From positions 19,846 through 83,845 of the forward strand of contig JAJRVD010000025.1 in NCBI GenBank assembly GCA_024277375.1: a stretch of DNA of 64,000 bases. Direction: 5' to 3'. This stretch comes from Candidatus Omnitrophota bacterium (GTDB lineage: Bacteria > Omnitrophota > Gorgyraeia > Tantalellales > Tantalellaceae). Under the pieces are notes generated by a model. The model was not told the origin of the DNA. It saw nothing but the letters and a program-made list of their open reading frames with translations, and did no database searches. This document shows positions 7,601-54,702 of this stretch, piece after piece (within the stretch, counting starts at the first letter, position 1; each line of letters starts with the position of its first letter). Both the position numbers and the translations under genes were made by a program.

Positions 7601-7752
7601 TGCAAAACGCTTTTTTTTAATCAGACTGTACCATAATGTAGGGGCTTGATTCATCAAGCCCATTATATCGGGTTCGATGAATCGAACCCCTACAATCAAT
7701 ACATTGTATGCGGACATCCGCAAAACGAATTACGAAAGTCCTATTTTGCAGG
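7601..7752 (+). repeat. MITE-like element, family A, copy 1
   Basis: Outer ends TGCAAAACG / ATTTTGCAGGA; arms CAGACTGTACCATAAT / AATTACGA; core GTAGGGGCTTGATTCATCAAGCCCATTATATCGGGTTCGATGAATCGAACCCCTAC; lies between serA and the aminotransferase gene. Confidence 0.85.
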
Positions 7753-7786
7753 ATCCTTTAACGTGTACGAGCACGGCGCCGTGCCC

Positions 7787-8917: not shown

Positions 8918-8938
8918 CTATTGCTCCTTACATTAATG

Positions 8939-8966
8939 GTAGGGGCGTATTGCAATACGTCCCTAC
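8939..8966. repeat. REP-like palindrome type 3b (GTAGGGRCGTAYYGCAAYACGYCCCTRC)
   Basis: GTAGGGGCGTATTGCAATACGTCCCTAC between clpP and the aminotransferase gene. Confidence 0.75.
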
Positions 8967-8976
8967 AATCGTTAAT

Positions 8977-9595: not shown

Positions 9596-9748
9596 CTGCA
9601 AAACGCTGTTTTTTTAATCAGACTGTGTCATAATATAGGGGCTTGATTCATCAAGCCCGTTATATCGGGTTCGATGAATCGAACCCCTACAATATATTGT
9701 ATGCGGCCATACGCAAAACAAATTACGACACAAGTTCCATTTTGCAGG
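9596..9748 (+). repeat. MITE-like element, family A, copy 2 (flanked by the direct repeat GTACAGCGTAT)
   Basis: Full arms plus core; 11-bp direct repeat at 9578-9588 and 9755-9765; lies between tig and clpP. Confidence 0.85.
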
Positions 9749-9793
9749 ACCCTTGTACAGCGTATGGCATACAGCGCATAGCGTTATTGAAAA

Positions 9794-11068
9794 CTATTTT
9801 TTCTCGACTATTTCCGCCTCATCGAGGAGAAAATCCAGTGTTTTATCTTCTCTTATCTGTTCCTCAAGCCCTCCGATAAGATCATTTTCTCTGTAGTATT
9901 CCTTAACTTTGTCGAAGGGTTGGTTATAACTGACAGCGAGATTCCTGATCCATTCCTCCGTCTCTTCGTCCGTGGACTCAACCTTCTCAATGTTCGCGAT
10001 CGCGTCGAGGATAAAATACAATTTAACTTTGTTTTCGGATTCTCTGGTAAGTTGGTCCTTTAGTTCCGCTTTATGCGATTCCATGGTCTTCTCATCTACG
10101 CCTTTCTGCTTCAATTCGTTTTCCGCTTTTTCCGTAAGCACTTTCAATTGTCTCGCGACCATAGTTTCCGGGAGGTCAAAGGCATGTTTCTTGAGCAGTT
10201 GTTCCATGATCTGATTTTTCATAGCCACTTTATCGTTGTACTGTTTTCTCTCTAAGAGTTGTGCTCGCACTTCATTCCGCGCGTCATCCATTGTTTCTTT
10301 GCCTATCTTTTTGGCAAATTCGTCATTCAACTCAGGCAGTTTTTTCTATTTCGTTTCTTTGACTTCAACCTTAAATATAGCTTTTTTGCCGGCATATTTT
10401 TCGTCAGGATAATTTTCCGGTAAAACGATCTCCATGTCTTTCCGGTCTCCTTTTTTTAGACCGATAAGCTCCTCGCCCATCCCCAGAAGAGAGGTTTCTT
10501 TGTCTGCTTCGATCCACATGTTCTCGCGTTTTTTTGAGATCAATTTATCATCCATAAAAGTTTCCACATCACAAACACCAAAATCTCCTTTTTTCATGGA
10601 TCTCTCGATATCACTAAATTCGGCATTCATGCTCTGGAACCGCTCTATGGTCTCCTCTACTTCTTTGCCTTCAACTGTTATCTTCTCTGCGGAAACTTTC
10701 AAACCCTTATATTTCTGTAACTTTATCTCCGGATGTGTATCCACTTTAGCTTTAAATTTAAGACCCCCTGAAGCTTCCATGACCACATCTGAAACCTCAG
10801 GAAGACTTACCGGCGTGATACCGTGATCGTTCAACGCCCATTGATACCCCTCGGAAACCAAACGACGTTGAACTTCATCGGTCGCTTCCTCATGATGATG
10901 TTTTTGCACAATATCCATAGGAGCTTTACCCGTCCTGAAACCCGGAATAGTCACGGTTTTACGAATATCTTCCAGCACCTCTTTATAAACTTCTTCAACT
11001 TTCTGGCTTGGGATCTCTATGTCCAACTGCCTGGACGTTCCTTTAAGTTTTTTTATCTTACCTTTCAT
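9794..11068 (-). pseudogene. tig: trigger factor (tig) interrupted by a single in-frame TAG at 10346-10348
   Basis: ORFs 10346..11068 (N-terminal ribosome-binding plus PPIase domains) and 9794..10330 (C-terminal domain) are in the same frame. Translation reads ...KVEVKETK-TAG-KKLPELNDEFAKK, collinear with the trigger-factor consensus (ELPELDDEFAK). No frameshift; combined length is 424 codons. Confidence 0.8.
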
Positions 11069-11630: not shown

Positions 11631-11749
11631 TTAGGCTCCTTTCACATGAATAATCCGAAAAATAAGAAATATAACTATACCACTATGCGTTACGTTTTTC
11701 AATAGATTTTGACGCTATAGTTCGCCAATCTGCCTCAATTTCTCGTCAT

Positions 11750-11888
11750 TCAGACTGTGTCATACCGTAGGGGCTTGATTCAACACCGTAGGGGCTTGAT
11801 TCATCAAGCCCGTTATATCGGGTTCGATAAATCGAACCCCTACTTCGACTCGGTCTCGTCTCACTCGCTTCGCTCGTTCGCCCAGGAT
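11750..11888 (+). repeat. MITE-like element, family A, copy 3 (internal partial duplication, composite with tail module)
   Basis: GTAGGGGCTTGATTCA duplicated; the core is followed by a type-2 tail (...CGCTTCGCTCGTTCGCCCAGGATGAC); lies between hpf and lptB. Confidence 0.75.
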
Positions 11889-14835: not shown

Positions 14836-14854
14836 TCCTGTTCCTTTTTTCTTC

Positions 14855-15035
14855 TTCGTCATTCAGGCTGTGTCATAATGTACGGGCTTGATTCATCAAG
14901 CCCGTTATATCGGGTTCGATAAATCGAACCCCTACCGTATATAGTATGCGGCCACCCGCAAAACGAACTACGATACAGCCTGATTGCGCGGGAGCACAGC
15001 AACCGAAGCCATCTCTACATAAGATCCTTCGACCA
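14855..15035 (+). repeat. MITE-like element, family A, copy 4 with right-arm extension
   Basis: Core plus arms; right extension GAGCACAGCAACCGAAGCCATCTCTACATAAGATCCTTCGAC; lies between queF and queE. Confidence 0.8.
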
Positions 15036-17487: not shown

Positions 17488-17513
17488 ATTATTCCTTTCT
17501 TGTTTTTTATGTT

Positions 17514-17541
17514 GTAGAGGCACGGCATGCCGCGCCCCTAC
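17514..17541. repeat. REP-like palindrome type 3a (GTAGRGGCACGGCATGCCGYGCCCCTAC)
   Basis: 28-bp near-perfect palindrome between kdsD and kdsC; shares GTAGGGG/CCCCTAC ends with the MITE core. Confidence 0.75.
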
Positions 17542-21180: not shown

Positions 21181-21345
21181 CTGCAAAATGAAATTTTCGT
21201 CATTCGGACTGTGTCGTAATTCGTTTAGCGGATAGCCGCATAAAATATATCGTAGGGGTTCGATTTATCGAACCCGATATAGCGGGCTTGATGAATCAAG
21301 CCCCTACATCATGGTACAGTCAGATTTAAAAAACAGCGTTTTGCA
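21181..21345 (-). repeat. MITE-like element, family A, copy 5 (reverse orientation)
   Basis: Reverse complement of the full-length element, including outer CTGCAAAATG / CGTTTTGCA ends; lies between the heptose kinase gene and trxA. Confidence 0.85.
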
Positions 21346-21367
21346 TAAGCCTAATTACATATTTCCG

Positions 21368-21394
21368 GCAGGGCGTATCGCAACACGCCCCTAC
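21368..21394. repeat. REP-like palindrome type 3b
   Basis: GCAGGGCGTATCGCAACACGCCCCTAC between MITE copy 5 and trxA. Confidence 0.7.
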
Positions 21395-21399
21395 CCAAA

Positions 21400-23520: not shown

Positions 23521-23532
23521 GACAGCCCCCCG

Positions 23533-23560
23533 GTAGGGACGTACTGCAATACGTCCCTGC
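23533..23560. repeat. REP-like palindrome type 3b
   Basis: GTAGGGACGTACTGCAATACGTCCCTGC between the macro-domain gene start and the upstream heptosyltransferase stop. Confidence 0.75.
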
Positions 23561-23590
23561 ATATTGTTTTATTCACTCCGTTACCTAATA

Positions 23591-26755: not shown

Positions 26756-28849
26756 TTAAGACTGCTTCATAACTTCCATCAAAGCATCAACAACTTTTTC
26801 AGGTTTGATCGAAGTTATACATTTTGATCTATCCTTACACGTCGGTTTATAACAGGGTGAACACTTTAAATTTTTATATAAAACTCTCATGTCTTCTGAC
26901 GGAGGAATATGCCTGTCGGGGTCTGTGGGACCAAAAAGGGCCACAAACGGCGTCCCGGTAGCGGCCGCCACATGCATAGGCGCGCTATCTCCCGTAACTA
27001 AAGCGTTACATCTCTCAATAAGGCTGATGAGTTGTGGAACATTCGTCTTCCCCACCGCGTCTATGGGTTTCGCTTCCGTCTTTTTGAGAAATTCCGCGGC
27101 ACACGGCCTGTCTTCTTCCGCCCCTAAAAGGACGACTCTCATCCCCTTATCACGAGCAAGTATCCGCGCCAATTCCACCATAGCCGGTACTCCCCAGTTT
27201 TTTGTCTCCCATCGTCTCGAGGCGGATAAGCTTAGAGCAACCAGTTTTTGTCCTTCTATCATCCATCGTTCTTTTAGAAACCTTTCGGCCCAAGCCTCAT
27301 TCGCGTCACCCGGCCATAATTCCAGGTTTTGTTTGATGCCTGTAATACCAAGAAGCCCCAAAACAAAGCTTTGATGTTTCACCGGTGTCATGGGTCTCCT
27401 CGGAACGCTGATTTTACGATTAAGAAGGAAACTTAACTTGCCATTATCATAGCCGAATCTTTCGGGTATCGCGCTTAAAAAAGAAAGAAGATGACTCTTG
27501 CGATTATTCTGAAGATCTATCGAAACATCAAAATCCTCTGCTCTTAATTTTCCGGCTAATTTTAAAAATCCGATCCCATTATCCCTGTTTTTAAAGTCAC
27601 CGGCAATGATCTCGTCGATATAGGGACAGTTGTCCAACAGCTCCCTGAAACGCACATCAACGAGGATCTTAATATTAGCGTTTTTAAAGCGGTTTCTAAC
27701 AGCGCGCAGCGAGGGAGTGCTGAGAATAATATCACCGAGCGAACTTATTTTAAAAATAAGTATATTTTTCAGACCAAAAACACGTTTGTACGCTTCCAGC
27801 GTCATAGTCATCGTTTTTTCCAGAGAATAATTCTCTTCCACATATTTCCTGGCATTTTCGGCAACTTTCATGACCAGATCGGGTTCCTCGGCATAACGCA
27901 TGATCTTGGCGGCCATATCGGTTGGATCTTTTGGCGCGCAGAAGAGACCCGTCAAACCATCATTTATATTTTCCACAACACCACCTATTCTGGTAGCTAC
28001 AACCGGAACACCCCTGGCCTGTGCCTCGATAATCGACCTTCCAAAAGCTTCCTGTTCACTGTTTGCGGAAACCAGGACATCTAACCCTCCAATAACATCC
28101 GCTACATCTTTAGTGCTATCAACAAATTTCACCGATCTTTCGATCATCAGGCGACGCATCGTAAGGCTGATCCTTCTAAGATACTCCTCCTTAGCGGACG
28201 TTCTGTCTCCCATCATAACGATCTCAACATCAGGGATCTTACGCAAAACGTGCGCCATGGCTTTCAGAAAATCCACATGACCCTTTAGCGGTGTAAACCG
28301 ACATATCATTCCTACCCGAAAAGGCTTACTTCTCGCGGCCGACGGGGGGACAAAGGAAAATTTCTTAAGATCCACGCCCCGGGGAATAATAGTGATCTTT
28401 TGCCGGGGTACATTGAAATTATCTTTCATGTACCTGGCCATCGTCTCATTGGCGGTAATAACAACTTTTCCCCACCCCATAACTTTACTGATCAGATGTT
28501 TTCTATATTGACCATGCGCGGTTGTAACAAATGTCTTCTGCAAAGAACGAGCGGCAAAGTAACCTATAAGTGCCGGAACCCTGCTTCTGCCGTGTACAAT
28601 ATCTATACTGTCCTTTCGAATGATATGCCTGAGCTTAAAGTAACAACGTATCATGACTAAAGGATTCTTACTGCCTACAGGAAGCGTATAATGGCGTCCC
28701 CCGATAGCGCTGAGATCTTTCTCCATGCGGCCACCTGCCGAGACCACTACCGCTTTATGACCGTTAAGGGTTAAGTACCGGGCGACTTCTATGGTCCCCT
28801 TCTCTACTCCACCGACATTAAGTTTTGGAACTAACTGTAAAATATTCAT
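26756..28849 (-). CDS. bifunctional glycosyltransferase: N-terminal GT4 fused to C-terminal GT9 heptosyltransferase
   Basis: About 700 aa; residues ~1-370 are GT4 (EAFGRSIIEAQARGVP); residues ~375-712 are GT9 (ILIFKISSLGDIILSTPSL ... GDSAPMHVAAA). Start set at MNILQLV to avoid overlap with the upstream gene. Confidence 0.75.
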   Translation of the reverse strand: MNILQLVPKLNVGGVEKGTIEVARYLTLNGHKAVVVSAGGRMEKDLSAIGGRHYTLPVGSKNPLVMIRCYFKLRHIIRKDSIDIVHGRSRVPALIGYFAARSLQKTFVTTAHGQYRKHLISKVMGWGKVVITANETMARYMKDNFNVPRQKITIIPRGVDLKKFSFVPPSAARSKPFRVGMICRFTPLKGHVDFLKAMAHVLRKIPDVEIVMMGDRTSAKEEYLRRISLTMRRLMIERSVKFVDSTKDVADVIGGLDVLVSANSEQEAFGRSIIEAQARGVPVVATRIGGVVENINDGLTGLFCAPKDPTDMAAKIMRYAEEPDLVMKVAENARKYVEENYSLEKTMTMTLEAYKRVFGLKNILIFKISSLGDIILSTPSLRAVRNRFKNANIKILVDVRFRELLDNCPYIDEIIAGDFKNRDNGIGFLKLAGKLRAEDFDVSIDLQNNRKSHLLSFLSAIPERFGYDNGKLSFLLNRKISVPRRPMTPVKHQSFVLGLLGITGIKQNLELWPGDANEAWAERFLKERWMIEGQKLVALSLSASRRWETKNWGVPAMVELARILARDKGMRVVLLGAEEDRPCAAEFLKKTEAKPIDAVGKTNVPQLISLIERCNALVTGDSAPMHVAAATGTPFVALFGPTDPDRHIPPSEDMRVLYKNLKCSPCYKPTCKDRSKCITSIKPEKVVDALMEVMKQS

Positions 28850-28850
28850 A

Positions 28851-30800
28851 TTAGAATAATCTGTACATCCTCTCGTACATCCGTTTATCATCATCAGGCA
28901 AAACGGTTTCGTTTTTGTCTTCTATGGCGCGAATCGTTTCTTTTCTTATCTCGCCCGCCTCTATACATTTGACGTATCCGTTCTTCGCGAGATCATTGAC
29001 AAACCGTTCATACTTGGTGACTTTCCTGGTTTTTTTCTCGGGCATGAAAACCAGGGTTGGCTTCCCGGAAGATACTGCCTCCGAAACCATCGAAATGCTT
29101 TCTCCCGAAACAACAACAACATCACTTTTCGCTAATATTTTTTCAACTGTATTTTTATCCTTATCTTGCACGCCTGAAACAAACTTACCTTTCACCTCTT
29201 TATTCTCAATATTTTCTTTGAGAATCGCTTCAATCTCTTTCGGTGTTCTTCGTGATGTAGTCACGTAAAAACCGCCCTCTATACCGACACACGCGTCACG
29301 TATTCCATCCGCTACAACTTTTGCCAGATCCTCGCCAAAACTGAAATGCGGATTGTCTCCGCCAAACAGCAAGCCAATACATTTTCGCTTGTCATCTGAC
29401 CCGCCCACCGTAGCTTCAGCGAGAGTGGGAGCCTCTATGTGTGCTTTTAGCCCTTCAGGGTCTATAAGATTAGGGGCTAGTTCCGTAACTATCACATTAT
29501 CTCTAACTTTTCCGCGCTGGTCATGTTTTGGCATAACTACAAGGTCAAAGCTCCTGCGATTGCCCCATCCCGGATCAAGCACAGTTACGTTTCGGGCATT
29601 ATTCTCTATTTTTATCATTTTATTAACCCCGAACAGTGTAGATCCGCAACTTATTATAACATCACCATACCGGCTACTTAGAACCTCGTAGCTTTCATTA
29701 GAAAGCGCCCGCTTTAAACATTTTAAACATCCCTGACAACGCCTGGTAAAAAACGGACTTATAGCGTTAAAAACAGCCTTGGCCCGCTTGCTTTTAAACT
29801 GAACTCTGAGGATATCAACTTCAACTTCCCCCTGCCGAAACCCTTCGTCTCTCCTATACATCTCGATCTGTTTAACAACCGCCAACGACTGTTTAAGATG
29901 CCCCTTTTTACCATCGTCCAGAACCATGATCTTTTTAACGGGGGTCAACTTCCATCTCTTATGCATCCAGAACCACTGTTCGGGATACGCCCTTATGTGC
30001 TTTTCGAGAAGCTTATTGTACCTTCGAGCATAAAGAGTAACATCCTCATCTTTTCCGACAACCATGGGTTCTTCCAGGATCAATTCCTGATAAGGTCCCT
30101 TGACCCGGTGAATAAACGCCGGTAATACCCATGCTCCGCTCTTTTGAGCGAATCGGTATGGACCAATGGCTGTTGATGCCGGCCGTCCGAAAAAATCTAT
30201 AAGCTTACCGCTGGTACCCGCGTTTTGATCCGCGAGAAGGCCCACGCTTCTCCCTTCACGAAGAAGCCGGAACATCCTCTTGATATCCATCCCCTTGCGA
30301 ATTACGGTAGCTCCTTTTGATTCCCGCAGCTGATTAAAAAGCTCATTAAGCCTTTTCATTTTCTGCTCTCGCGCCAAAATACACAATGTGTATCCCTTAA
30401 TAGCGCTTGCCGCCGTACTTAATTCCCAATTCCCAAAGTGCGCGGAAACCATTATCATACCCTTCGGGTTTTTCGATGCTTTCTCTATCCTTTCCATATT
30501 TTGGATCTTTATGTATTTATCAACATACTTCTCATCGACCTTTGTCAAAGAAACAAGTTCGGCAAAAGTCTGTGCCATATGTCTGTAAACACCTTTTGAG
30601 ATATGCTTTATCTCTTTTGGTGTTTTCTCCCGGCAGAATGCCGCTTTGAGGTTGGCATATGTTATCCCTATTCTCTTTCCACTCAAAAGACGCACAAGAT
30701 CCCCAAGACACCTGCCCAACCAAAGGTTAAATCCTATCGGCATGACATGAAGAAACCGGTTCAATCCCCTAACCAGAAATGACGCTATTAAGTCCAGCAC
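28851..30800 (-). CDS. LpxL-family lipid A acyltransferase fused to ELM1/DUF1022-like GT-B domain
   Basis: 649 aa; N-terminal ~290 aa are LpxL/HtrB-like (HFGNWE, WFWMHKRWK); C-terminal ~350 aa match the mitochondrial-fission ELM1-like bacterial family (TTSRRTP ... SMVSEA motifs). Confidence 0.7.
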   Translation of the reverse strand: MLDLIASFLVRGLNRFLHVMPIGFNLWLGRCLGDLVRLLSGKRIGITYANLKAAFCREKTPKEIKHISKGVYRHMAQTFAELVSLTKVDEKYVDKYIKIQNMERIEKASKNPKGMIMVSAHFGNWELSTAASAIKGYTLCILAREQKMKRLNELFNQLRESKGATVIRKGMDIKRMFRLLREGRSVGLLADQNAGTSGKLIDFFGRPASTAIGPYRFAQKSGAWVLPAFIHRVKGPYQELILEEPMVVGKDEDVTLYARRYNKLLEKHIRAYPEQWFWMHKRWKLTPVKKIMVLDDGKKGHLKQSLAVVKQIEMYRRDEGFRQGEVEVDILRVQFKSKRAKAVFNAISPFFTRRCQGCLKCLKRALSNESYEVLSSRYGDVIISCGSTLFGVNKMIKIENNARNVTVLDPGWGNRRSFDLVVMPKHDQRGKVRDNVIVTELAPNLIDPEGLKAHIEAPTLAEATVGGSDDKRKCIGLLFGGDNPHFSFGEDLAKVVADGIRDACVGIEGGFYVTTSRRTPKEIEAILKENIENKEVKGKFVSGVQDKDKNTVEKILAKSDVVVVSGESISMVSEAVSSGKPTLVFMPEKKTRKVTKYERFVNDLAKNGYVKCIEAGEIRKETIRAIEDKNETVLPDDDKRMYERMYRLF

Positions 30801-31812: not shown

Positions 31813-31825
31813 AAGCTCTATTCTC

Positions 31826-31983
31826 TGTCATTCTGGCTGTGTCGTAATGTAAGGACTTGATTCATCAAGCCCGTTATGTCGGGTTCGCTAAGCTTGTCCC
31901 CGCGAAAGCGGGGATCGAACCCGATATAACATATTGTATACGGCCATTCGAAAAACAAATTGCGACACAGTCTGATCGCGAGG
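31826..31983 (+). repeat. MITE-like element, family A, copy 6, with a GC hairpin (TCCCCGCGAAAGCGGGGA) inserted in the core
   Basis: Arms conserved; the core centre is replaced or interrupted by a 21-bp GNRA-type hairpin; lies between lpxK and waaA. Confidence 0.75.
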
Positions 31984-37475: not shown

Positions 37476-37530
37476 ACATCACCCACTCCTTCACTTTAAG
37501 CCACAGAGCGCTTTATGCCTTAACACCCCT

Positions 37531-37745
37531 GTCATTCAGACTGTGTCATAATGTAGGGGCTTGATCCATCAAGCCCGTTATATCGGGTTCGATGAATCGA
37601 ACCCCTACAATATACTGTATGCGGCCACCCGCAAAACGAATTACGACACAGCCTCATTGCAAGGCCTGCAAGATAGAAGCAATCTCTAGATGATATCCTT
37701 CGACTCGGCCTCGCATGTCTCGACTTCGCTCAGGATAAATTCGAA
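37531..37745 (+). repeat. MITE-like element, family A, copy 7 (composite with type-2 tail)
   Basis: Core plus arms at 37531-37665, then AGCAATCTCTAGATGATATCCTTCGACTCGGCCTCGC...CGCTCAGGATAA; lies between dprA and the aroK-HD-GYP gene. Confidence 0.85.
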
Positions 37746-37787: not shown

Positions 37788-39302
37788 TTAAAAGACTCCT
37801 TTTCTGACCATATCAAGAAATATATCCGTAAGCCGGGGGTCAATTTTGTGACCTTTTTCATTTTCCATTATCGCTACCGCCTCATCGATAGAGAACTTTT
37901 CGCGATATGGCCTGTCTGCAGTTAACGCCTCATATATATCGGCTATGCTTAATATCCGCGCTTCCAGTGGGATCCGCCATCCCTTTCGTCCTTTAGGATA
38001 ACCCGAACCATCAAAATTTTCGTGGTGATTTACAATGATAGGTATGGTCTTACGCAGAAAATAGATCAGCCGTGCCATCTCGGCACCCCAGTAAGAATGC
38101 ATCTTCATCTGTCGAAACTCATTTTTTGTCAGCTGTTCTTTTTTGAACAAGATACTCTCTTCTACACCCAACTTCCCTATATCATGCAGAAGCGCTGCCA
38201 CTTTAAGCCTTTCTGTCTTCACTTTACTCAGTTTGATCTTTTTCGCCAGACTGGCGGCAAAGGTCTTAACCCTAGCAGAATGTTCAGCCACCCATGGCTC
38301 ACTTCTCATGCCGGCATCGAACAGTATACCCATCATTTCAAGATGCGCCGCATGCAGCTCTTTCGATGAAAGAGTATGACTTTTCGCGCTACTATCTACC
38401 GGATCCTCCTTTTCTCTTCCGACAAACATATAAAACACGGTTTTCTCTTCTTTTATGGGCACCACCAACCAGGAGATATATTTCCCGGAGACACCGGACG
38501 CGACAACAGGCATATCAAATTTAAAAAGCCTGTTTTTTCTTTTCATCTCTTTATTTATTTTCCACGCGTCGCCTCGCGCAGATTCGGGTATTATACCATT
38601 GATCCAGGACCGATTCATGATATCGTTTTCAAGAAGAGAGAACGCGGTTAAATATTTTTTGTTCACAAAAACAACCTGACCTTCGTTATCCACGAGCATT
38701 ACAGGGTATTTTATGTTCTGCAGCAATCTTTCAGAAAAATAACCCCAAAGAACGGTATTCTCTTCTAACCCCCGGCCTCTACCCTGTCGTCCTTCAAGGC
38801 GGTTACGCATAATATTCTTCACGCGATCTAAAACGATCGTAAGATCGAGTCCCGTAGTATCTATGTGATAGTTCGCTTTCTTGTAATATGGCCGACGATA
38901 TTCCAGAAGTTCTCTTATCATTTTCCGAGGATCATCAACTTCAAGAAGCGGCCTATGCGCATATTCTTTCGTTCTATCGTATATGGCGTCAACATCAGCC
39001 CATAGACATATAACAACACCAGTCCTACGAAGATCCTTCATATTTTGCCGATTCAAAACTACTCCACCGCCGGTGTCGATCACCTGATCCAATTTTGCCG
39101 AAACCTCTTTTACAACTTCTCGCTCGACCGTTCTGAAATATTCTTCACCTTCATCTCTGAAAATATCAGAAATAAGTTTGTCCTCCCGTATCTCTATGAG
39201 ATTGTCTACACTGACGTATTCCTTGCCCGTATCGTGAGCAAGCGCTTTGGCGATCTCGGTTTTCCCGGATCCCATAAAGCCTACAAGTACAATATTTTTC
39301 AT
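37788..39302 (-). CDS. shikimate kinase fused to PAS-like sensor and HD-GYP phosphodiesterase domain
   Basis: 504 aa; residues 1-175 are a complete AroK (GFMGSGKT Walker A, conserved shikimate-binding pattern); middle ~150 aa are PAS-like; the C-terminus carries HDIGK ... HHENFDGSGYP (HD-GYP signature). Confidence 0.75.
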   Translation of the reverse strand: MKNIVLVGFMGSGKTEIAKALAHDTGKEYVSVDNLIEIREDKLISDIFRDEGEEYFRTVEREVVKEVSAKLDQVIDTGGGVVLNRQNMKDLRRTGVVICLWADVDAIYDRTKEYAHRPLLEVDDPRKMIRELLEYRRPYYKKANYHIDTTGLDLTIVLDRVKNIMRNRLEGRQGRGRGLEENTVLWGYFSERLLQNIKYPVMLVDNEGQVVFVNKKYLTAFSLLENDIMNRSWINGIIPESARGDAWKINKEMKRKNRLFKFDMPVVASGVSGKYISWLVVPIKEEKTVFYMFVGREKEDPVDSSAKSHTLSSKELHAAHLEMMGILFDAGMRSEPWVAEHSARVKTFAASLAKKIKLSKVKTERLKVAALLHDIGKLGVEESILFKKEQLTKNEFRQMKMHSYWGAEMARLIYFLRKTIPIIVNHHENFDGSGYPKGRKGWRIPLEARILSIADIYEALTADRPYREKFSIDEAVAIMENEKGHKIDPRLTDIFLDMVRKGVF

Positions 39303-39331: not shown

Positions 39332-39504
39332 GTGCAAAACGCTGTTTTTTTTCAATCAGCCTGTGTCATGATGTAGGGGCTTGATTCATCAAGCCCGTTA
39401 TATCGGGTTCGATGAATCGAACCCCTACAATATGTTGTATGCGGCCATCCGCAAAACAAATTACGGTACAGCCTGAATGACGAGAATTCCATTTTGCACA
39501 AGTC
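39332..39504 (+). repeat. MITE-like element, family A, copy 8 (flanked by the 15-bp direct repeat TTACATACTTTTTAG)
   Basis: Inverted ends CTTGTGCAAAACG / CATTTTGCACAAG; identical 15-bp direct repeats at 39313-39327 and 39505-39519; lies between the aroK-HD-GYP gene and aroC. Confidence 0.88.
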
Positions 39505-40632
39505 TTACATACTTTTTAGTTGCTCCAAATATCCCTCGTAATTCCGGCGGATCTCTTTCATGGAGTCTCCGCCAAACTTCTCTAAAAATACGGCGCCAAT
39601 TTCTATAGCCACAGCCGCTTCGGCGATAACACCGCAAGCCGGAACCGCGGTTACATCAGAACGCTCCGTAGCGGCTTCCGCTTCCTTCTTCGTATCGATA
39701 TCAACAGTTTTTAACGGACTTGCCAAAGTCGCTATGGGCTTCATAAAAGCCTTTACTACAACCGGAGCTCCATTCGTAACTCCGCCCTCTATTCCTCCGG
39801 CATTGTTAGATTCTCGCGTGAACATTCTCCCCAAACTATCATATCCTATCGGATCATGCGTGAGCGAGCCCTTTCGCTACGCGCATTCTATTCCCTTTCC
39901 TATCGAAACCGCCTTTACCGCGGGTATTGCCATAACGGCACGTGCTATCCGACCATCCAACCTTCTGTCCCACTGCGCGTATGTCCCCAATCCCGGAGGG
40001 ATTTCAAGTACCGCGATCTCGATGGTACCACCCAAAGTATCACCGCAAATTTTCGCGTTATCAATGATCTTACGCATACTTTTCGCGGCATTCTTGTCCG
40101 CGCATCTAAGATCTGAAACTTCAGCGATCTTTTTTATTTCATCAAAGAAAAGTCCGTCGGTTTCCGCCTCGACGTTTCCTATCGCGGTAACATGGCTCAT
40201 TACATCAATACCAAATTCTTTAAATATCAATTTCGCGACAGCACCAACAGCGACTTTTATCGCTGTCTCTCGTGCCGAGGCTCTCTCCAGAACATCCCGG
40301 GCGTCTCCAAGAGCATATTTCTGCACACCGGCCAGATCGGCATGTCCGGGACGAGGACATTTTACATCAGGAAGTTTATCGATCTTATGATCCTTATTGC
40401 GTATCAAAAGCCCCACAGGACTGCCTATAGTAAACCCGCCTCGAATGCCGGTCACTACTTCGACCTTATCCCTCTCGATCTTCATCCGGCCGCCTCTACC
40501 ATACCCTACCATACGCCGGGTGAGCTCTTTGTTGATGAATTCTTCATCCATTTTGAGACCCGCGGGCACGCCGTCCAAAACCGCCATTAATCCCTTGCCG
40601 TGGGATTCTCCCGCAGTCATATACCTTAGCAT
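39505..40632 (-). pseudogene. aroC: chorismate synthase (aroC) interrupted by a single in-frame TAG at 39877-39879
   Basis: ORFs 39877..40632 and 39505..39834 share a frame. Read-through gives ...SIGKGIECA-TAG-RKGSLTHDPIGYDSLGRMFTRESNNAGGIEGG, collinear with the AroC consensus (GxGFxxAxxxGSxxxDxI...RSNxAGGIxGG). Total 376 codons. Confidence 0.8.
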
Positions 40633-40717
40633 GGCAAACTCCTTTTTTTCGTATTCCGGATATCGTCAAATCAATGGGGATCAGACCTGCCCCAAAGTCT
40701 TTGCCACCTCTTCTCTG

Positions 40718-40790
40718 TCATCGTGTCGTGTAGGGGTTCGATTCATCGAACCCAATATAACGGGCTTGATAAATCAAGCCCCTACATTAT
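40718..40790 (-). repeat. MITE-like element, family A, copy 9 (minimal core-only copy, reverse orientation)
   Basis: GTAGGGGTTCGATTCATCGAACCCAATATAACGGGCTTGATAAATCAAGCCCCTAC with short arms; lies between aroC and pilD. Confidence 0.75.
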
Positions 40791-40828
40791 GACGAAGCTA
40801 TCACTATAAACACCACTCTCCTACGTAA

Positions 40829-41640: not shown

Positions 41641-41684
41641 CACGTCGTACATCGCATAGCGTACATCATACAGCGTGTTCTCCT

Positions 41685-41885
41685 GTCATTCAGACTGTAT
41701 CATAATGTAGGGGCTTGATTTATCAAGCCCGTTATATCGGGTTCGATGAATCGAACCCCTACAATATGTTGTATGCGACCATCCGTAAAACGAATTACGA
41801 CACATCCTTAACCGAGGACATCGTTCCCGAGTAAGTCCCGGGACCAGAGGTTCTCGGGAAAGGGCCGAGTCAAAGGATCTCTTAT
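41685..41885 (+). repeat. MITE-like element, family A, copy 10 (composite with type-2 tail)
   Basis: Core plus arms at 41685-41806, then a tail ending GGGCCGAGTCAAAGGATCTC; lies between pilD and aroE. Confidence 0.82.
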
Positions 41886-42784
41886 TTGTCTCTCTTCAAC
41901 TCCGCCAAAACCGCTTCTTTCATAACTTTTTTCGTCTCTTCAAGAGGCTTCCCCGTCCATATATTAAAAGCAATGGCCGCCTGGTTGATCAGCATACCCA
42001 ATCCATTAACCGCTGTGAGCCCTTGTTCTTTCGCGGTTTTTAGAAGCCTCGTTTCCCGGGCATAGACAAGATCATATACTGTCATCCCCTCTCTTAAACA
42101 CTCAAGAGGAACAGCCGAACGATCATCCCCCTCTTTCGTTCCGATCGGGGTCGCGTTTACAACAAGTTCGCATTAGGCCATTCTTCCGGAAATATCTTTT
42201 GCCTCAACAGGGACGCACGCGTCCGGCCCAAACTGCTTCTTGCAAACAGTTGCCAATTGACAAAGTAGATCCTCTTGCGAATCATAAAGAAATATTTCTT
42301 CAGGTGCCGCCTCACCGATAGAAGCAAGATACATGCACAGAGCTCGCCCCGCCCCGCCGGATCCAAACAGAAAAACCTTTTTACCTTTGGGGTCAAATCC
42401 CGCGTCTTCTTGCAATGATTGATAAAACCCTTCCACGTCAGTATTATACCCCTTAACCTTTTCACCATCACTCCTGACGGTATTGACAGCACCCAGCAAT
42501 TCCGCTTCGCTATCTATAGTACACTTCTGTCCGGATTTCAGCATATCAAACACGGCTATCTTATAAGGTACCGTAACATTAATACCACCAATATTGTTGT
42601 CCTTGATAAGACTCAAGAAATCCTTATCTATATGTTTTGCTCTGGTGTCAAAATCTCTATCGAAAAGTTTATATTCGGTTGGTATGCCAAAATGGGCAAG
42701 CGCCGCATTATGCATGACGGGAGACAAAGAATAGCTTATATTCTTCCCAAGAAGACCGTATACTTTAGCGTTGACGTTCGACAT
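41882..42784 (-). pseudogene. aroE: shikimate dehydrogenase (aroE) interrupted by a single in-frame TAA at 42173-42175
   Basis: ORFs 42173..42784 (N-terminal substrate domain; Rossmann GSGGAGRA) and 41882..42085 are in the same frame. Read-through gives ...DISGRMA-TAA-CELVVNATPIGTKEG...MTVYDLVY..., matching the AroE consensus DLVVNATxxGM. Confidence 0.8.
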
Positions 42785-44649: not shown

Positions 44650-44815
44650 TGTCTCAAGTCACTTTGCAAAGAACAACATACAACATAACATACAACATAC
44701 TGTAGGAGTTTGATTTATCGAACCCGATATATCGGGCTCGATAAATCAAGCCCCTACATTGCAACACAGACTGATCGCGAGGAGCACAGCAACGAATCAA
44801 TCTCTACGATATGTG
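44650..44815 (-). repeat. MITE-like element, family A, copy 12 (subfamily variant, reverse orientation)
   Basis: Core variant GTAGGAGTTTGATTTATCGAACCCGATATATCGGGCTCGATAAATCAAGCCCCTAC; shares the CAAGTCACTTT / ACATACAACAT arm with copy 11; right extension GAGCACAGCAACGAATCAATCTCTACGATA; lies between leuA and ilvC. Confidence 0.75.
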
Positions 44816-45847: not shown

Positions 45848-45903
45848 CTCACTTCCTCCTTTTTACTAGCGCTCATGCTTCATGCACAATACACTTTTTC
45901 CCC

Positions 45904-45985
45904 GTCCATTCAGACTGTATCATAATGTAGGGGCTTGATTCATCAAGCCCGTTATATCGGGTTCGATAAATCGAACCCCTACATT
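45904..45985 (+). repeat. MITE-like element, family A, copy 13 (right arm truncated)
   Basis: Left arm plus full core; ends 3 nt before the ilvH TAG stop; lies between ilvC and ilvH. Confidence 0.8.
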
Positions 45986-45988
45986 ACG

Positions 45989-46474
45989 CTATTCACTATC
46001 CGACCGCAAAGCTATCTTTCCGGTCCTCACGATCTCCAAAATTCCATAGGGACGTACCAGCTCCACAAGAGCTTTTATCACATGGTCATCCCCTGACTCT
46101 TCAACAGTAAGAGACTTCTTACCGACATCCACTATCTCCGCACCGGTAGTGTCAACAACTTTTACGATCTTTTCCCTGACCTTAGTATCCGGCGCCTTGA
46201 CCTTTATCAGTATAAGCTCTCGCCCGATATGCTCTCCCTCGGTAAGGTCCTGCACGCTAATGACATCTATAAGTTTATTAAGCTGTTTCTTTACCTGTTC
46301 CAATATCTTCTCATCCGCCGCCACGACTATTGTCATCCTTGATGTATCAGGATCTTCCGTTTCACCTACCGCTAACGACGTAATGTTAAACCCCCGTGCG
46401 GAAAAAAGTCCGGCAACCCTCGCCAAAACACCAAACTTATTTTCTACTAAAACTGATAGTACAAATTTAGACAT
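45989..46474 (-). CDS. ilvH: acetolactate synthase small (regulatory) subunit
   Basis: 161 aa; ACT domain plus C-terminal ALS_ss_C; TAG stop abuts a truncated MITE. Confidence 0.9.
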   Translation of the reverse strand: MSKFVLSVLVENKFGVLARVAGLFSARGFNITSLAVGETEDPDTSRMTIVVAADEKILEQVKKQLNKLIDVISVQDLTEGEHIGRELILIKVKAPDTKVREKIVKVVDTTGAEIVDVGKKSLTVEESGDDHVIKALVELVRPYGILEIVRTGKIALRSDSE

Positions 46475-46502: not shown

Positions 46503-46675
46503 TCATGCAAAACGCTGTTTTTTCAATCAGACCGTATCATAATGTAGGGGCTTGATTCATCAAGCCCGTTATATCGGGTTCGATAAATCGAACCCCTACA
46601 ATATCTTGTATGCGGCCATCCGCATAACAAATTACAACACAGGCCGAATGACGAAAGTTCCGTTTTGCAAAACCC
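46503..46675 (+). repeat. MITE-like element, family A, copy 14 (full length)
   Basis: Outer ends ATGCAAAACGCTG / CCGTTTTGCAAAA; flanking CAGTCTT / AGCTTTCAG direct-repeat motifs on both sides; lies between ilvH and ilvB. Confidence 0.88.
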
Positions 46676-48511: not shown

Positions 48512-48673
48512 ATAAATCAGGAATCTATCTCCCCCCTGTCATTCCCGCGAAAGCGGGAATCTATTAATATTAATAGTCAGTTCCTATTAAATCAGGAAAC
48601 CAAGGATTTTACAATTACATAAGTATAACACAAGAAATTATGTTGTCAAGCGCTTCTCGGGGAACAAGAATGG

Positions 48674-49011: not shown

Positions 49012-52000
49012 TTACACCGATCGCCAGACTTCTGACGTCGCCGCGAAGATCTCCTTGATCATACCCATATCCACTTTTGTTATCGCCGGCAATGCCAGGT
49101 TAAAAACTATTTTAACGAAATCTCCTATACCTTTGGAATTAAATGCCTCTACTAATTCTTTCTCGAAATCCTCGATGCTATTCGCATTGTTAGTCGCACG
49201 CGCTAATGCCCTGGCCTTTAGCCTTACGGCGTCTTCCTGGTCTTTCGGTGTTGCTCTATTTTCCTTAGCAAGATTTGCCACATGTCCCAAGTTAAGATTG
49301 GCAAATGATACGCCCATCAAACTGCCGTACGGCATCACAGCCGCAGGATCTTCCGCATTCTCTTTATCCTTCCATATCGTAAGCATAGTATTTTCATTAA
49401 GAAAATCTTCTACACTTTTCTCTCGCGTCAAATCTTTCAACGCCTCTAACTTCTCTAATTCTTCAAGTACCGATCTGGCTATCTGAAGATCTATCCGGGT
49501 ACGGCTATCATCTTCCCCCTTAAACGCGTCAATAGCTTCGCGAATAATTTTTTCAGCTTCATTCGTACCCATTGTATTTCTTAATCTTATGTTACCTTCC
49601 TTGCCCAAATCATGTTCGGCTATAAAGTTGTTTCCGCTGCTTTTCAAAGCGGTTAATCGTGACGCGAATTCCACTTGCGTCACCCCTTCCGGCTTGCCAC
49701 CCGCGATTATACCGTAGCACGGGGGTAGATCTTTACTCATAACTTCAGCGACATCCATTGCAGACGCTTCGACACCCTTCGTCATTGCTTCTTTGACCTC
49801 GTCTTTATTTCCTTCATACGGCTTGCTGCCATCGATGGTCACAGAATCATCGGTTACATTAAATTCTACAACATCCACAGCTTCAAGCTCATCCAAAAAT
49901 TGTTTCCTTATATTGTGATACCGACGTATTATACCGTCAGCCGTATCATCACTTGTTGCTACGAGCCGGACACCATTAAATACGACACTAGACATATCAC
50001 CCGGCAGAAGGTCCTCTACCATTCGGCTAGCAATACTTTCTATTGTTTCATCGGCATCCGGTATCACCTTGAACATCTGGGGCCCATCACCTTCCGACGC
50101 TATTATCTCTTTGGCGCGCGCCAATACCATGTTCTGTCGTTCGATATCAGTTATATCGTTCATCTCAAGAAACCCTACAATATCTGATTCAGCTTTAAAA
50201 ACTTCTTTATAATTATCCGGAAAAATTCTTGCAGCGTTGAGAGAATATATTTCTTCTGCCAAAATGACGGCGTCTTTGAATCTTTGTGTCAATATCAGTG
50301 CAAACGCGTTTTCTTTATCTGACAAACCGGAGATCTCTGCTCTTGCCGTAGATTCTTCAACAAGTTTCTCTCCCTGCGGAGACAAGATCTTTTTAGCCAG
50401 CTTCAATATCTTATCCTGACGTGTACTCTCTCTTATATTGTATTTTTCAAGAAAACTTACGACAGCGTCTTCAGCTTTCCTAGCTGGGGCACCCCAATCC
50501 CTTGCGATAGCAGCATCACCATAAATTCCTTCCGCTAAATTGACATCTCCCCGCTTACCAAAGGGGGATTGTGCTAATAACCTGGCTAAAATGGTATCAT
50601 CCAAATTTTTAAACTTATGATCAGGTAAATTCCCATCATATAATATCTTGTTCAAACTAATCGTCTGCGCGTACATCAATACTATGTCCTGTATCAACTT
50701 TGGAACATCCTTATCTTCAGTATTTTTAATTAGCTGAGGTGAGATATAGAGCTTTCCTGCTTCAAAATATATACCATCCATAATGCCAGCGGTATCGGAG
50801 GGCCTTAGCTCTTTTTCTGCGAACGGAATAGCGATATTCTGTCCACTAGATATGTCTGCAAGCACAAACTCAATTATTTTATTAACAACCGTTTTCGCAT
50901 CCAGAGTCTCATTAATGCCTATTTTTTTAAGAAGCTCTTTCTCCATCCGTTTTGTCATCTGCTCACGATTGTGATTTAATAGCTTGCCCATATCATCCTG
51001 CATATACCTCAGTCCTTCGATCAACCTGAATGCCACACGAACAGTTTTTCCATTAAAGAACATATTGCCATACCATGCGCTTAGTTGCATCTCTTCAAAC
51101 GCGCGGATCAGCTCATTTGCTTTTGCCCTGATAGACACAACCTCTTCCGGAGCATTCAAATACCTGGGATTTATGTATATCACACCATCGTTTTGATGCA
51201 TTGTATACTTCGTCAGGTCCGTAAGATTCTGGTTGTTTAAAACGTCTATATTTGAGGCTCTCTCCATGCTGTTCCTTCTCAACATGTCCGCGACATCTCT
51301 CGCTACCAAATCGAGACTACTCATCTTTACTATTTCATCGAACAGCTTCTTGCCTTCTCCTCCTTCAAGATCTAAAAAGTCAGAGCCATATATTCCAACC
51401 GCTTCCCTATGTAATAAGCCCTGATGACTCTCTGCCGCTAATACAGCAATGGCTTCTGTAACTTTCTTGTCCCTCGTAAATTCTTCCCCGTCCGCTCTTG
51501 CCTGCTCCTCAGCTACCAAGTCTAACTGTGCGAACTCATCTAAGCCTTCAATCACATCACTTCTTTCTTTCACTTCATGGTACAATTGTCTGCTGATCTC
51601 CTCTAAATTTCCCGCATCAAACAATTCCTGTGGTAAATATATCTGCGCTCTCGAAACGCCATAATGTCCGCTCCTTAAACCTGGCACAATTATGATCTGC
51701 ACATCCTTCAATAAACTAGTTCTATTTGGCAGCCCGCCTATAACCTCAACCAATAGCCTCATTTGAGCCGGAACCAATCCGGGAGTTTCATTTTGCTTAA
51801 ATGTTTCTCCAGTTTTTCCGTCGGTTTTCACATAAGATTGGACTATCTCGCCATCATCAAACTGATAGGAAGTGGTTAACCCGTCTTTGAGCGGTTTTTC
51901 GATCCACCTTTTATACTCCTTGTTGTCCAACCCCTCCACGCCGCGGCCGTAGGCAAATTTATTGGAAGTTACATTGCTCTTCTTAGCCTGATAATAATGA

Positions 52001-53844
52001 TTTTGTGTTCCCCCCCTTAATATCCTGTCTCCCTCTCTGATCTCTTCCAGTTTTATCAACATATCATCTCTCAAGCCCTCTTGTGGCTTTGGTCTTGCGC
52101 GGCTGACCACTACAAAAAGATCATCCCCCCACTTCTCTTTGAACAACTCCACGCCGGGAGCAGCATTTCTCCAATCTTTTATCATTTTTTCTATTCGCAA
52201 CAACTTCTCATTCTCCTCAATAAAATCCATCCCATCCATATTCTTTTTTATGTTCCGGATAGTTTTGGCCAACTCTATTACGTTATCGGTAAAGTCTTCC
52301 GAAGACACATCCGCGAATCCATCCACTTTTGCCAGACCCGTCAACTGTTCAAACAGATCCACGCCATAGGCAAAATCCCTGTCTCCACCTTTTTCTATTC
52401 GGTCTCCTTCCATAGCAAGATTAATTATTTCCATAGCGTCCATATCCATGCTCTCGCTGTGTTTAATGCTATATGCCGCGCCTGTTTCATGTATTAAAAC
52501 TTCCGCTAATTGCGTATAATCTTGTAACAAATCCGGGTTCAGATATATCGTTTCGTAACTGGCATGGCCACTTACAGGTATTGACTTGTTCCAAATTTGT
52601 ATGTCCTGTTTCATGATAAAATCTATCTGGGATTCTTCTAACCTTAAACTACGAAGAGCAGCTTTTAGTTCCTCCAGGTCTTCGCCCTGCTCCCCAAACT
52701 TATGCATTCCTGCCTCTTTCCCTAATGCGTCTATCCATACTTCATGCTGCAGATACGTCATCGTGTCACCGTCTACAAGAACAATGTCTATGAAGTCCGC
52801 CATACGCCGAATATCCTTATCTGTTTCTACGTAAATATCGACCCCTATTAGAAGCCCTACATCCATAGCAAACCCGGTATCCGAATGTCTTGGTGCTATG
52901 TATGTGGTATCATAATCGGCCGAATGAATGTCTATCCACCCAAACTTGGTCTTAATCGTCAACGTTTCGTTTTTGGCTAACGCTTCCGCTGCCTTGACCA
53001 TCAACTCCATCATATTTTTATTTCTCACATCTATACCCATCTCAGAAAACAGGCTCTGTACGGCTATGGTAGAAGCTCCGGGGGTATAAGAGACCGCTTT
53101 GGTTATAAGCTCCTCGAAGGGCGACTTTTCGCCCGCCAGAAGAGCAAAATACGGACTGTCTTCCTCAACTTGAAGGCGTGGCATTACCTCGATGTATGAG
53201 TATCCTTCTTTTTCAAAGAGTTCCGCCAGGTTTTCCGTATGGAATCCCCCTGTTACAAGAACGGCTATTTTTTTGTCACCGAACTTAGCTCCGATATTCT
53301 TTAAAAACGCGTCATCCCTTTTGAATGCATAGTCATAGAATCCTTCCATATGTTCTCTATAGGAATCTAGTTTTGCTATACCAGAAGGAGTTGTTAGTTT
53401 CAGGCCGTACTGCGGAGCCTTCGCGTCAAAAAAGGCGGTAAAACATTTAACTCCGAACCCGTCTCTGTTGGCCTTGTAATACTCATACTTGTCCCTGACA
53501 AGTGAAAGTGCGAAGAGATCCTTAAGTATGCTCAGTTTTTTTGAAAGTTCGATGAGCCTCTCCTGATCAGGAGTTTTCGCGAACGTCTTCATAAGAGCCT
53601 CTTCTATTTTCCGTACGTCCTTATTAAGGGACGCTTTATCAATATGTTCATAATTTTTCACATATTCAGCATATTTAACAAGGTTGGGCAACTTGCTAAA
53701 GTCTACCGACGCGAATTCCGCTTTCTTAAAAAGATATACATAAAAATCTTCGGATGAAATGTCACCGGTCTTGAACGCGATGGTCTTAACAGCCAGACGT
53801 TTGGCGGCTTTTCTGGATAGTTTTTTGGTAAGTTTATCGATCAA
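49012..53844 (-). CDS. giant hypothetical protein (1,610 aa in this ORF)
   Basis: Uninterrupted 4.8-kb ORF with coding-like composition and no recognisable catalytic motif; a rho-independent terminator follows at 48925-48967. The ORF-track start is a TTG with no RBS, and the ORF is in frame with the upstream ORF 53959..54702. Confidence 0.6.
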   Translation of the reverse strand: MIDKLTKKLSRKAAKRLAVKTIAFKTGDISSEDFYVYLFKKAEFASVDFSKLPNLVKYAEYVKNYEHIDKASLNKDVRKIEEALMKTFAKTPDQERLIELSKKLSILKDLFALSLVRDKYEYYKANRDGFGVKCFTAFFDAKAPQYGLKLTTPSGIAKLDSYREHMEGFYDYAFKRDDAFLKNIGAKFGDKKIAVLVTGGFHTENLAELFEKEGYSYIEVMPRLQVEEDSPYFALLAGEKSPFEELITKAVSYTPGASTIAVQSLFSEMGIDVRNKNMMELMVKAAEALAKNETLTIKTKFGWIDIHSADYDTTYIAPRHSDTGFAMDVGLLIGVDIYVETDKDIRRMADFIDIVLVDGDTMTYLQHEVWIDALGKEAGMHKFGEQGEDLEELKAALRSLRLEESQIDFIMKQDIQIWNKSIPVSGHASYETIYLNPDLLQDYTQLAEVLIHETGAAYSIKHSESMDMDAMEIINLAMEGDRIEKGGDRDFAYGVDLFEQLTGLAKVDGFADVSSEDFTDNVIELAKTIRNIKKNMDGMDFIEENEKLLRIEKMIKDWRNAAPGVELFKEKWGDDLFVVVSRARPKPQEGLRDDMLIKLEEIREGDRILRGGTQNHYYQAKKSNVTSNKFAYGRGVEGLDNKEYKRWIEKPLKDGLTTSYQFDDGEIVQSYVKTDGKTGETFKQNETPGLVPAQMRLLVEVIGGLPNRTSLLKDVQIIIVPGLRSGHYGVSRAQIYLPQELFDAGNLEEISRQLYHEVKERSDVIEGLDEFAQLDLVAEEQARADGEEFTRDKKVTEAIAVLAAESHQGLLHREAVGIYGSDFLDLEGGEGKKLFDEIVKMSSLDLVARDVADMLRRNSMERASNIDVLNNQNLTDLTKYTMHQNDGVIYINPRYLNAPEEVVSIRAKANELIRAFEEMQLSAWYGNMFFNGKTVRVAFRLIEGLRYMQDDMGKLLNHNREQMTKRMEKELLKKIGINETLDAKTVVNKIIEFVLADISSGQNIAIPFAEKELRPSDTAGIMDGIYFEAGKLYISPQLIKNTEDKDVPKLIQDIVLMYAQTISLNKILYDGNLPDHKFKNLDDTILARLLAQSPFGKRGDVNLAEGIYGDAAIARDWGAPARKAEDAVVSFLEKYNIRESTRQDKILKLAKKILSPQGEKLVEESTARAEISGLSDKENAFALILTQRFKDAVILAEEIYSLNAARIFPDNYKEVFKAESDIVGFLEMNDITDIERQNMVLARAKEIIASEGDGPQMFKVIPDADETIESIASRMVEDLLPGDMSSVVFNGVRLVATSDDTADGIIRRYHNIRKQFLDELEAVDVVEFNVTDDSVTIDGSKPYEGNKDEVKEAMTKGVEASAMDVAEVMSKDLPPCYGIIAGGKPEGVTQVEFASRLTALKSSGNNFIAEHDLGKEGNIRLRNTMGTNEAEKIIREAIDAFKGEDDSRTRIDLQIARSVLEELEKLEALKDLTREKSVEDFLNENTMLTIWKDKENAEDPAAVMPYGSLMGVSFANLNLGHVANLAKENRATPKDQEDAVRLKARALARATNNANSIEDFEKELVEAFNSKGIGDFVKIVFNLALPAITKVDMGMIKEIFAATSEVWRSV

Positions 53845-53958
53845 AGCCCGACGTTCCCTGTTGGCTTTTTTAAAATCAATAGACTTTTCGTCCCCAAGCA
53901 GTTTAAGAAGAGCATTAACATCCGCGTGTTGCTCAATATCTACACCGTTAGCCTTACT

Positions 53959-54702
53959 TTACTTCGCTAGAAAAGTTACATATTCTTTAAACTCAATTTT
54001 TTTCCCATTATATGCCATACGTTTTCCATCAACAACTTTAAGAGCCGACGTGTATATCTTGCGCTTTAAATTACTCATCCCGTTCTCTAAAAATTTTAGG
54101 TATCTATCGGCATCCTCTTTAAACGCCAGCGAACTCCTGTAAGCGTTTAAGTTTCCAAAATATAACTCTTCATTTTCGATCCCTGAAAGCTCGATCTTGT
54201 ATGGATTGTTTATAGCGAAGAATTCGGCACCTGTAACACGTCCGGCTTTCACAAATAAGTCGGATACCTGTTCTCTTACCTGTCGGTCACGTATGTCGGT
54301 AAACATCGACAGGTCATACTCGCCCGCTCCCCCTTCAAGAAACGCGAGATCCGCGCCATAAGCTTCATTGGTATACTTCATGAGGTTGGCGATAGATCGT
54401 TGGGCGGAATAGTTACAATGGGCGTCCTGGATGTGGATGATCGTTTTACCATTCTCACCGGAGATCCTGCGTTTTATCTCTCCAAAACGTAGCGGCACCG
54501 TAGAGGAGGCGGGGTCGAATTCCTCCCGGGCATATACCTCGCCTCCCGGGATACCGGCAATAATTCCCGGCACCTCGACAGCAGCGATGGCTCTAGCCAG
54601 ATCCGCGCCTATCATTGTGAACGAAAAAGAACACAGCGTAATTATCGCGAATGTTCTCATCAGCGTCTTTCTGAGACCGGTTTTATTATTAGAATAACAC
54701 AT
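53959..54702 (-). CDS. hypothetical secreted protein (possible N-terminal part of the giant protein)
   Basis: 247 aa; N-terminal signal/TM segment; strong AGGAGGA RBS before ATG 54702; same frame as 49012..53844, separated from it by one TAA plus 38 stop-free codons. Confidence 0.55.
   Translation of the reverse strand: MCYSNNKTGLRKTLMRTFAIITLCSFSFTMIGADLARAIAAVEVPGIIAGIPGGEVYAREEFDPASSTVPLRFGEIKRRISGENGKTIIHIQDAHCNYSAQRSIANLMKYTNEAYGADLAFLEGGAGEYDLSMFTDIRDRQVREQVSDLFVKAGRVTGAEFFAINNPYKIELSGIENEELYFGNLNAYRSSLAFKEDADRYLKFLENGMSNLKRKIYTSALKVVDGKRMAYNGKKIEFKEYVTFLAK

Follow-up and report, generated by a model that had tools for sequence, protein, structure and literature searches.

Does the in-frame TAG inside the trigger factor gene (tig) of this Omnitrophota bacterium mark a codon that is recoded, a gene that has recently been lost, or a base that was deposited incorrectly? 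The TAG had been pointed out in a sequence-only reading of the window (i.e., the whole stretch of 64,000 nucleotides). The codon was evaluated here through the structure of the gene, the orthologs of related species, the terminators of the neighboring genes, and the frequency of comparable stops in the window and in related genomes.

Layout and Identity of the Interrupted Gene

The window was gene-dense with a G+C content of 44%, and all of its genes except one were carried by the minus strand. The sole plus-strand gene within positions 1-64000 was a comF-like gene (57149-57904). A strong composition skew was present on the plus strand over the window (16,949 C versus 11,438 G).

The tig gene was located on the minus strand at 9794..11068 and comprised 424 codon positions, including the internal TAG. 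Its terminal stop, which was also TAG, was at 9794-9796, and clpP was directly downstream. The internal amber codon was codon 241 (10346..10348, minus strand). The plus strand reads 'cta' at 10346-10348, which is TAG on the minus strand, so the clean in-frame stop reported inside tig was present. Translation of the minus strand from 11068 to 9794 gave 240 amino acids, a stop, 183 amino acids and the terminal TAG, in agreement with the earlier description of two open reading frames that share a frame and read KVEVKETK and then TAG. The junction was ...IFKVEVKETK*KKLPELNDEFAKK..., and the residues flanking the stop position (x) were VEVKETK-x-KKLPELNDEFAK. The upstream frame (10349..11068, minus strand; 240 aa) contained the ribosome-binding N-domain and the FKBP-type PPIase domain and represents the predicted truncated product. 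The downstream frame (9797..10345, minus strand; 183 codons) contained the C-terminal chaperone domain (PF05698), which would be untranslated if the TAG terminates. Both halves of the 1,275-nt gene were in one frame with a single internal stop. Neither a second internal stop nor a frameshift was found on translation of the 1,275 nt, and the earlier statement that the gene had no other lesion was correct. The isolated stop was flanked by 243 and 183 open codons, and both halves matched one protein family. Given these open flanks and the common family of the halves, the pattern exceeds chance.

The best-matching trigger factors, which were from Candidatus Omnitrophota, had 64% identity over 100% of the 424-residue reconstructed protein (homologs of 423-424 aa). 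The identity of the reconstructed 424-aa protein to full-length Candidatus Omnitrophota trigger factors was 53-65% over 99-100% of the length. The domains of the homologs were PF05697 (N-domain), PF00254 (FKBP PPIase) and PF05698 (C-domain), and the reconstructed protein had this three-domain architecture, collinear with its orthologs. The stop occupied exactly one gapless alignment column against 21 full-length homologs, and a tblastn HSP from a trigger-factor homolog spanned residues 1-424, through the stop. The collinearity with trigger factors and the replacement of exactly one residue, both proposed earlier, were thus confirmed. The two halves were deposited as separate predicted proteins, P0082 (240 aa) and P0121 (178 aa), and a single 87,523-bp NCBI contig was the source of both. 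Hence, the TAG belongs to the deposited record and was not introduced into the window. P0082 contained PF05697 and PF00254, whereas PF05698 was found only in the full-length homologs. This comparison places the stop where the PPIase domain meets the C-terminal domain.

The Stop Site in Related Species and Terminator Usage

One genome per GTDB species was scanned for relatives, and 65 Omnitrophota tig loci were returned. Orthologous tig genes, to which the sequence-only reading had pointed for comparison, were intact and without a stop in 65/65 related species. Most relatives had Glu in the column of the stop and a few had Lys, Gln, Val, Arg or Asp; a stop did not occur there. GAG, AAG and CAG are each one base change from TAG, and the stop replaces a sense codon of the orthologs, as is expected of a pseudogene. 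Since Glu was present in most relatives, a single substitution in a GAG codon offers the simplest path to TAG.

The terminal stops of the 52 minus-strand genes were TAA (31), TAG (12) and TGA (9). For the TAG-ended genes cdsA, class-V aminotransferase, tig and kpsF, the stop of the relatives was at most 3 residues away in 171/177 comparisons. The terminal TAG of tig itself coincided with the C-termini of its homologs, and the Pfam profiles ended at the TAG-terminated C-termini. TAG functions as a terminator in this genome, and the host very probably uses the standard code. Any recoding of UAG that the sequence-only reading may have implied was therefore not supported.

Neither a tRNA nor an Rfam match was found within the window. 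The 120 nt after the tig TAG folded no better than shuffled sequence (z = -1.9), and tandem back-up stops were not in excess among the window genes. A literature search found no paper that linked Omnitrophota with stop-codon recoding or suppressor tRNAs. The tig TAG is very probably an ordinary nonsense codon, with no recoding involved.

Three Further Clean Stops in the Window

Further cases were sought by a scan for isolated stops in long open frames, followed by Pfam searches over all genes. Equally clean stops were present in aroC, aroE and a gene for a large hypothetical protein; these stops and the role of TAG as a normal terminator had been missed in the sequence-only reading. In aroC (chorismate synthase, 40632..39505, minus strand), an in-frame TAG was located at 39877..39879, and one Chorismate_synt match (2-348) spanned it. 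The PDB and Omnitrophota homologs were collinear through the stop, and among 38 Omnitrophota homologs the residues in the column included G, S and A. The window's own 251-aa aroC fragment is in a public database (P0212). In aroE (shikimate dehydrogenase, 42784..41882, minus strand), an in-frame TAA was located at 42173..42175, preceded by Shikimate_dh_N and followed by SDH_C, both in one frame. The PDB alignments crossed the stop, and the column was E in 8/19 homologs; the window's own 203-aa aroE fragment is in a public library (P0282). The last case was an in-frame TAA (53959..53961, minus strand) in the gene for a 1,897-codon Omnitrophota-specific protein (54702..49012), where a tblastn HSP spanned the stop. 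Homologs of 950-1,000 aa covered 99% of a 579-aa query that spanned the stop, the alignment was collinear, and the stop replaced one residue, which was K, R, L or others in the homologs.

No Pfam domain was found in the 1,897-codon protein (49012-54702, minus strand). Its N-terminal region of ~600 aa defined an Omnitrophota-restricted family of ~950-1,000 aa, whose members carry no annotation beyond hypothetical, membrane or secreted.

The remaining window genes were all full length against their Pfam profiles, and 0 of the ~52 genes in the window were frameshifted. The internal stops and their next nucleotides were UAG-A, UAG-C, UAA-U and UAA-A. Downstream of all four stops, no significant RNA structure was found (z from -1.9 to +0.1). 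Visual inspection for a motif common to the surroundings of the four stops revealed nothing beyond a CGAA tetramer, whose offset varied and which was judged to be due to chance. Other isolated minus-strand stops were rejected as candidates, namely those at 2325 (the cdsA/dxr gene boundary), 17545 (the kpsF/kdsC gene boundary), 26756 (the boundary between two glycosyltransferase genes) and 57397 (antisense to the plus-strand comF-like gene).

Repeat Families and Gene Fusions

A family of ~155-nt intergenic repeats with at least 15 copies occupied nearly every intergenic gap. The copies were located at 7610-7766, 9607-9763, 11739-11830, 14852-15008, 21256-21342, 31821-31974, 37525-37681, 39345-39501, 40702-40820, 41679-41835, 44674-44792, 45899-46055, 46516-46672, 48705-48861 and 55276-55407. 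The core of the repeat was composed of two adjacent hairpins, GGGGCTTGATTCATCAAGCCC and GGGTTCGATGAATCGAACCCC, the order of which was swapped in some copies. The family looks REP-like or MITE-like, and no Rfam match was found for it. Two smaller families of G+C-rich palindromes were present at gene ends, i.e., GGGGCGTATTGCAATACGTCCC (8938-8967, 21366-21395 and 23532-23561) and GGGGCACGGCATGCCGTGCCCC (17508-17541, 48668-48701 and 62885-62918). These palindromes are possibly terminators or another type of REP.

Unusual fusions were also observed on the minus strand. Shikimate kinase was fused to a PAS and an HD domain (37788-39302), lipid A acyltransferase to an ELM1-like domain (28851-30800), and a GT4 glycosyltransferase to a GT9 heptosyltransferase in one 712-aa protein (26756-28894).

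Excess of Stops and Tests for Sequence Noise

The window proteins were compared by tblastn with the 65 related loci, which covered 1.0 Mb and gave 961 gene-level alignments. Clean internal stops were found in 4/52 window genes versus 1/961 relative alignments (Fisher p = 3e-5), and the stop rate was ~80x that of the 65 related genomes. The method was validated in the reverse direction, in which the homologs searched against the window recovered all four stops. The 961 alignments of the relatives contained one genuine internal stop and four frameshift-like splits. The sole genuine internal stop in the relatives was in a lipid A acyltransferase homolog (L046, ~347-1225, ...SPKDM*KLLKNN...). Four clean stops in 64 kb without a frameshift constitute an excess that is mildly odd and specific to this genome.

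The contribution of sequence noise was estimated from the coding sequences of the window. The stop-creating share of random substitutions in these sequences was 4.2%; hence, four stops imply ~96 random errors in 58 kb. The noise test covered 18 genes with at least 25 relatives and columns that were at least 97% conserved. The window deviated at 8/1,287 conserved columns (0.62%), which placed it at rank 31 of 54 genomes, with a median of 0.70%. All eight changes were conservative, e.g., D to N, I to V and V to I. Under noise, ~5 more changes would be expected, most of them radical, and the power of the test was limited accordingly. The changes at conserved columns were not raised and no indels were seen; random base-call noise is disfavored within this limited power. 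Moreover, the absence of indels in ~52 genes indicates good per-base quality.

The constraint on either side of the stops was compared at columns that were at least 90% conserved. The upstream part of tig had 0/50 deviations, and the downstream part had 4/46, all of them conservative (rank 5 of 48). For the four genes pooled, deviations were found at 11/161 downstream columns versus 5/225 upstream columns (p = 0.036), with values within the range of the relatives. This asymmetry was absent in the relatives, and more deviation downstream is as expected if the tails are no longer translated. Furthermore, the window contained three shikimate-pathway genes, two of which carried stops, and 0 of the four stops were in its many LPS, lipid A and topoisomerase genes. 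As signals of real truncation, the asymmetry across the stops and the clustering in one pathway are weak, suggestive and post hoc. Each of the four genes had exactly one lesion and was otherwise conserved as in the relatives.

Interpretation as Probable Recent Nonsense Alleles

We infer that the stops are real and recent nonsense alleles, a reading to which we assign a probability of about 0.55. In tig, one substitution, most simply from a presumed ancestral GAG (Glu241) to TAG, would end translation at codon 241 and release a 240-aa fragment composed of the N-domain and the PPIase domain. The fragment would have no C-terminal domain, which presumably would alter its function. The C-terminal domain is the main chaperone module of E. 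coli trigger factor, and tig is dispensable in E. coli. The window's tig would be a very recent loss-of-function allele, i.e., a pseudogene at its first step. Together with the alleles of aroC, aroE and the gene for the large surface-type protein, it would form a set of four or more clean nonsense alleles in the window that is specific to this genome. All four stops are plausibly in dispensable genes, and such a pattern would fit a lineage in which selection is relaxed or the mutation spectrum is prone to transversions. The probable ancestral codons were GAG in tig, GAA in aroE, TCG or GAG in aroC, and AAA or TTA in the gene for the large protein. The changes would then be mostly transversions toward T or A, although this is uncertain with relatives that are only 47-72% identical. 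Re-initiation after the tig TAG seems unlikely from the sequence around it.

Some observations count against real alleles. Given one lesion in each gene, four independent inactivations must all be very recent, and four stops with 0 frameshifts are unusual for natural gene decay. Searches of the protein database, the GTDB species representatives and the JGI metagenomes found no sequence near-identical to tig; the best match had 64% identity. These collections contained no second sample of the population. The source genome was absent from both the GTDB r232 species representatives and the JGI metagenomes, and this lineage seems to have been sampled a single time.

Alternative Explanations

The main rival to real alleles is that all four stops are errors in the deposited consensus and that the tig of the organism is intact. 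Such errors could have arisen through DNA damage, through low coverage or faulty polishing of the assembly, or because the assembler selected a minor variant. We regard this explanation as unlikely, though it deserves serious consideration. It is consistent with four genes that are otherwise pristine, with an excess over related MAGs that is confined to this one record, with the position of the genome outside the GTDB species representatives, and with searches that found no independent replicate. In addition, two to three of the stops fit a change from G:C to T:A (GAG to TAG, GAA to TAA, TCG to TAG), the class that is produced by oxidative damage, but this signature is uncertain because the ancestral codons were deduced from relatives with 47-72% identity. 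However, the ~96 errors required in 58 kb should have added ~5 mostly radical changes at the conserved columns, whereas the eight seen were conservative and at the median level, and indel errors numbered 0 in ~52 genes.

It is much less probable that the stops are real but decoded, either by an ochre-type suppressor tRNA (anticodon UUA, which reads UAA and UAG) or by leaky termination, such that the cell would still obtain useful amounts of full-length trigger factor, AroC, AroE and the large protein. All four internal stops were UAR and none was UGA, and the genes were conserved on both sides of the stop, as expected if the stops are tolerated. However, chance alone would give 4/4 UAR in 39% of cases. 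TAA and TAG end 43/52 genes, so a suppressor would be costly, and the tandem back-up stops were not in excess. Moreover, the replaced columns differed among the four genes (E; G/S/A; E; K/R/L), the next bases were not uniformly leaky, and no structure was found downstream. The absence of a tRNA from the window, the occurrence of the tig site in 0/65 relatives and the lack of literature on decoding for Omnitrophota also argue against this explanation. The features of programmed readthrough were likewise not observed, in that the contexts of the stops differed, no structure was found and the site was unconserved. The more specific proposal that the lineage decodes UAG/UAA, through a UUA suppressor tRNA or weakened RF1 termination, and keeps the four genes functional is very improbable. 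If it were true, this would be a free-living bacterium in which stop-codon capture is still at an early and ambiguous stage.

A functional split of tig is highly improbable. Here, the 240-aa fragment would act with a C-domain that is separately initiated from TTG 10330 or a nearby ATG. The stop fell between the PPIase domain and the C-terminal domain, an in-frame TTG was present 5 codons past it, and gene callers predicted both halves. However, no Shine-Dalgarno-like sequence preceded the TTG (10330) or the next ATG, unlike the real starts of tig and clpP, which were preceded by AGGA or AAGGAGG. A split tig was found in 0/65 relatives, and the other three stops were not at domain boundaries.

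Reassignment or conditional use of TAG as a sense codon, by pyrrolysine-type recoding or a changed genetic code, is effectively refuted: two in-frame TAGs in conserved genes (tig and aroC) would be in its favor, but TAG (in 12/52 genes) and TAA terminate at conserved C-termini, TAA is hit as well, the TAG columns contain different residues (E in tig; G, S or A in aroC), the window contains no PYLIS-like structure, tRNA or Rfam match, and the tig site is in 0/65 relatives.

Comparison With Known Systems

The tig stop alone is routine and leaves present knowledge of trigger factor and of the genetic code unchanged; a nonsense codon in a conserved gene is a kind of feature that is already known. 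A modest value resides in the pattern, i.e., four clean stops and 0 frameshifts in 52 genes with no sign of general noise. Real alleles would mean that the record shows gene loss at its first step, with a chaperone, two enzymes of the shikimate pathway and a large protein of surface type affected. The Omnitrophota are a phylum suspected of host-dependent lifestyles. If the stops are artefacts, the record serves as a warning: pipelines split the genes, and the fragments P0082, P0121, P0212 and P0282 are already in public protein databases.

In stop reassignment, TAG is read as Gln in some phages, and UGA is read as Trp or Gly in Mycoplasma, SR1 and Gracilibacteria. In those codes, the reassigned codon occurs often within most genes and does not serve as a terminator. 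The window resembles such codes in having in-frame stops within conserved genes; it differs in that only 4/52 genes are hit, only tig and aroC carry an in-frame TAG, TAG is common as a terminator, and TAG and TAA together end 43/52 genes. The pyrrolysine UAG of the methylamine methyltransferase genes (mtmB, mtbB and mttB) is conserved across orthologs and requires pylTSBCD. As in pyrrolysine systems, the UAG of tig is in frame in an otherwise intact gene, and UAG is also a terminator in the genome. Unlike in those systems, UAG was in 0/65 orthologs, the family is unrelated, TAA stops occur too, the fold after the stop was at the shuffled level (z = -1.9), and the pyl genes were absent from the window.

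The closest likeness is to ordinary nonsense pseudogenes, such as the amber rpoS allele in E. coli K-12 and the stop-codon pseudogenes in Salmonella Typhi. The shared features are one base change in an otherwise intact conserved gene, lineage specificity and a non-essential function. Natural pseudogene sets usually mix frameshifts and stops. The present case is unlike the usual one in that four stops occur in 64 kb with no frameshift and that their reality is deduced from one record.

For the product itself, a comparison is provided by the domain-deletion constructs of E. coli trigger factor that were reportedly made by Merz, Kramer, Deuerling and colleagues, in which the N-domain and PPIase domain are present without the C-domain. 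The predicted 240-aa product of tig matches this N-domain and PPIase fragment and, by analogy, should bind ribosomes without most of the chaperone activity. The E. coli fragments are laboratory constructs, whereas the truncation of tig arises from a natural or apparent nonsense codon.
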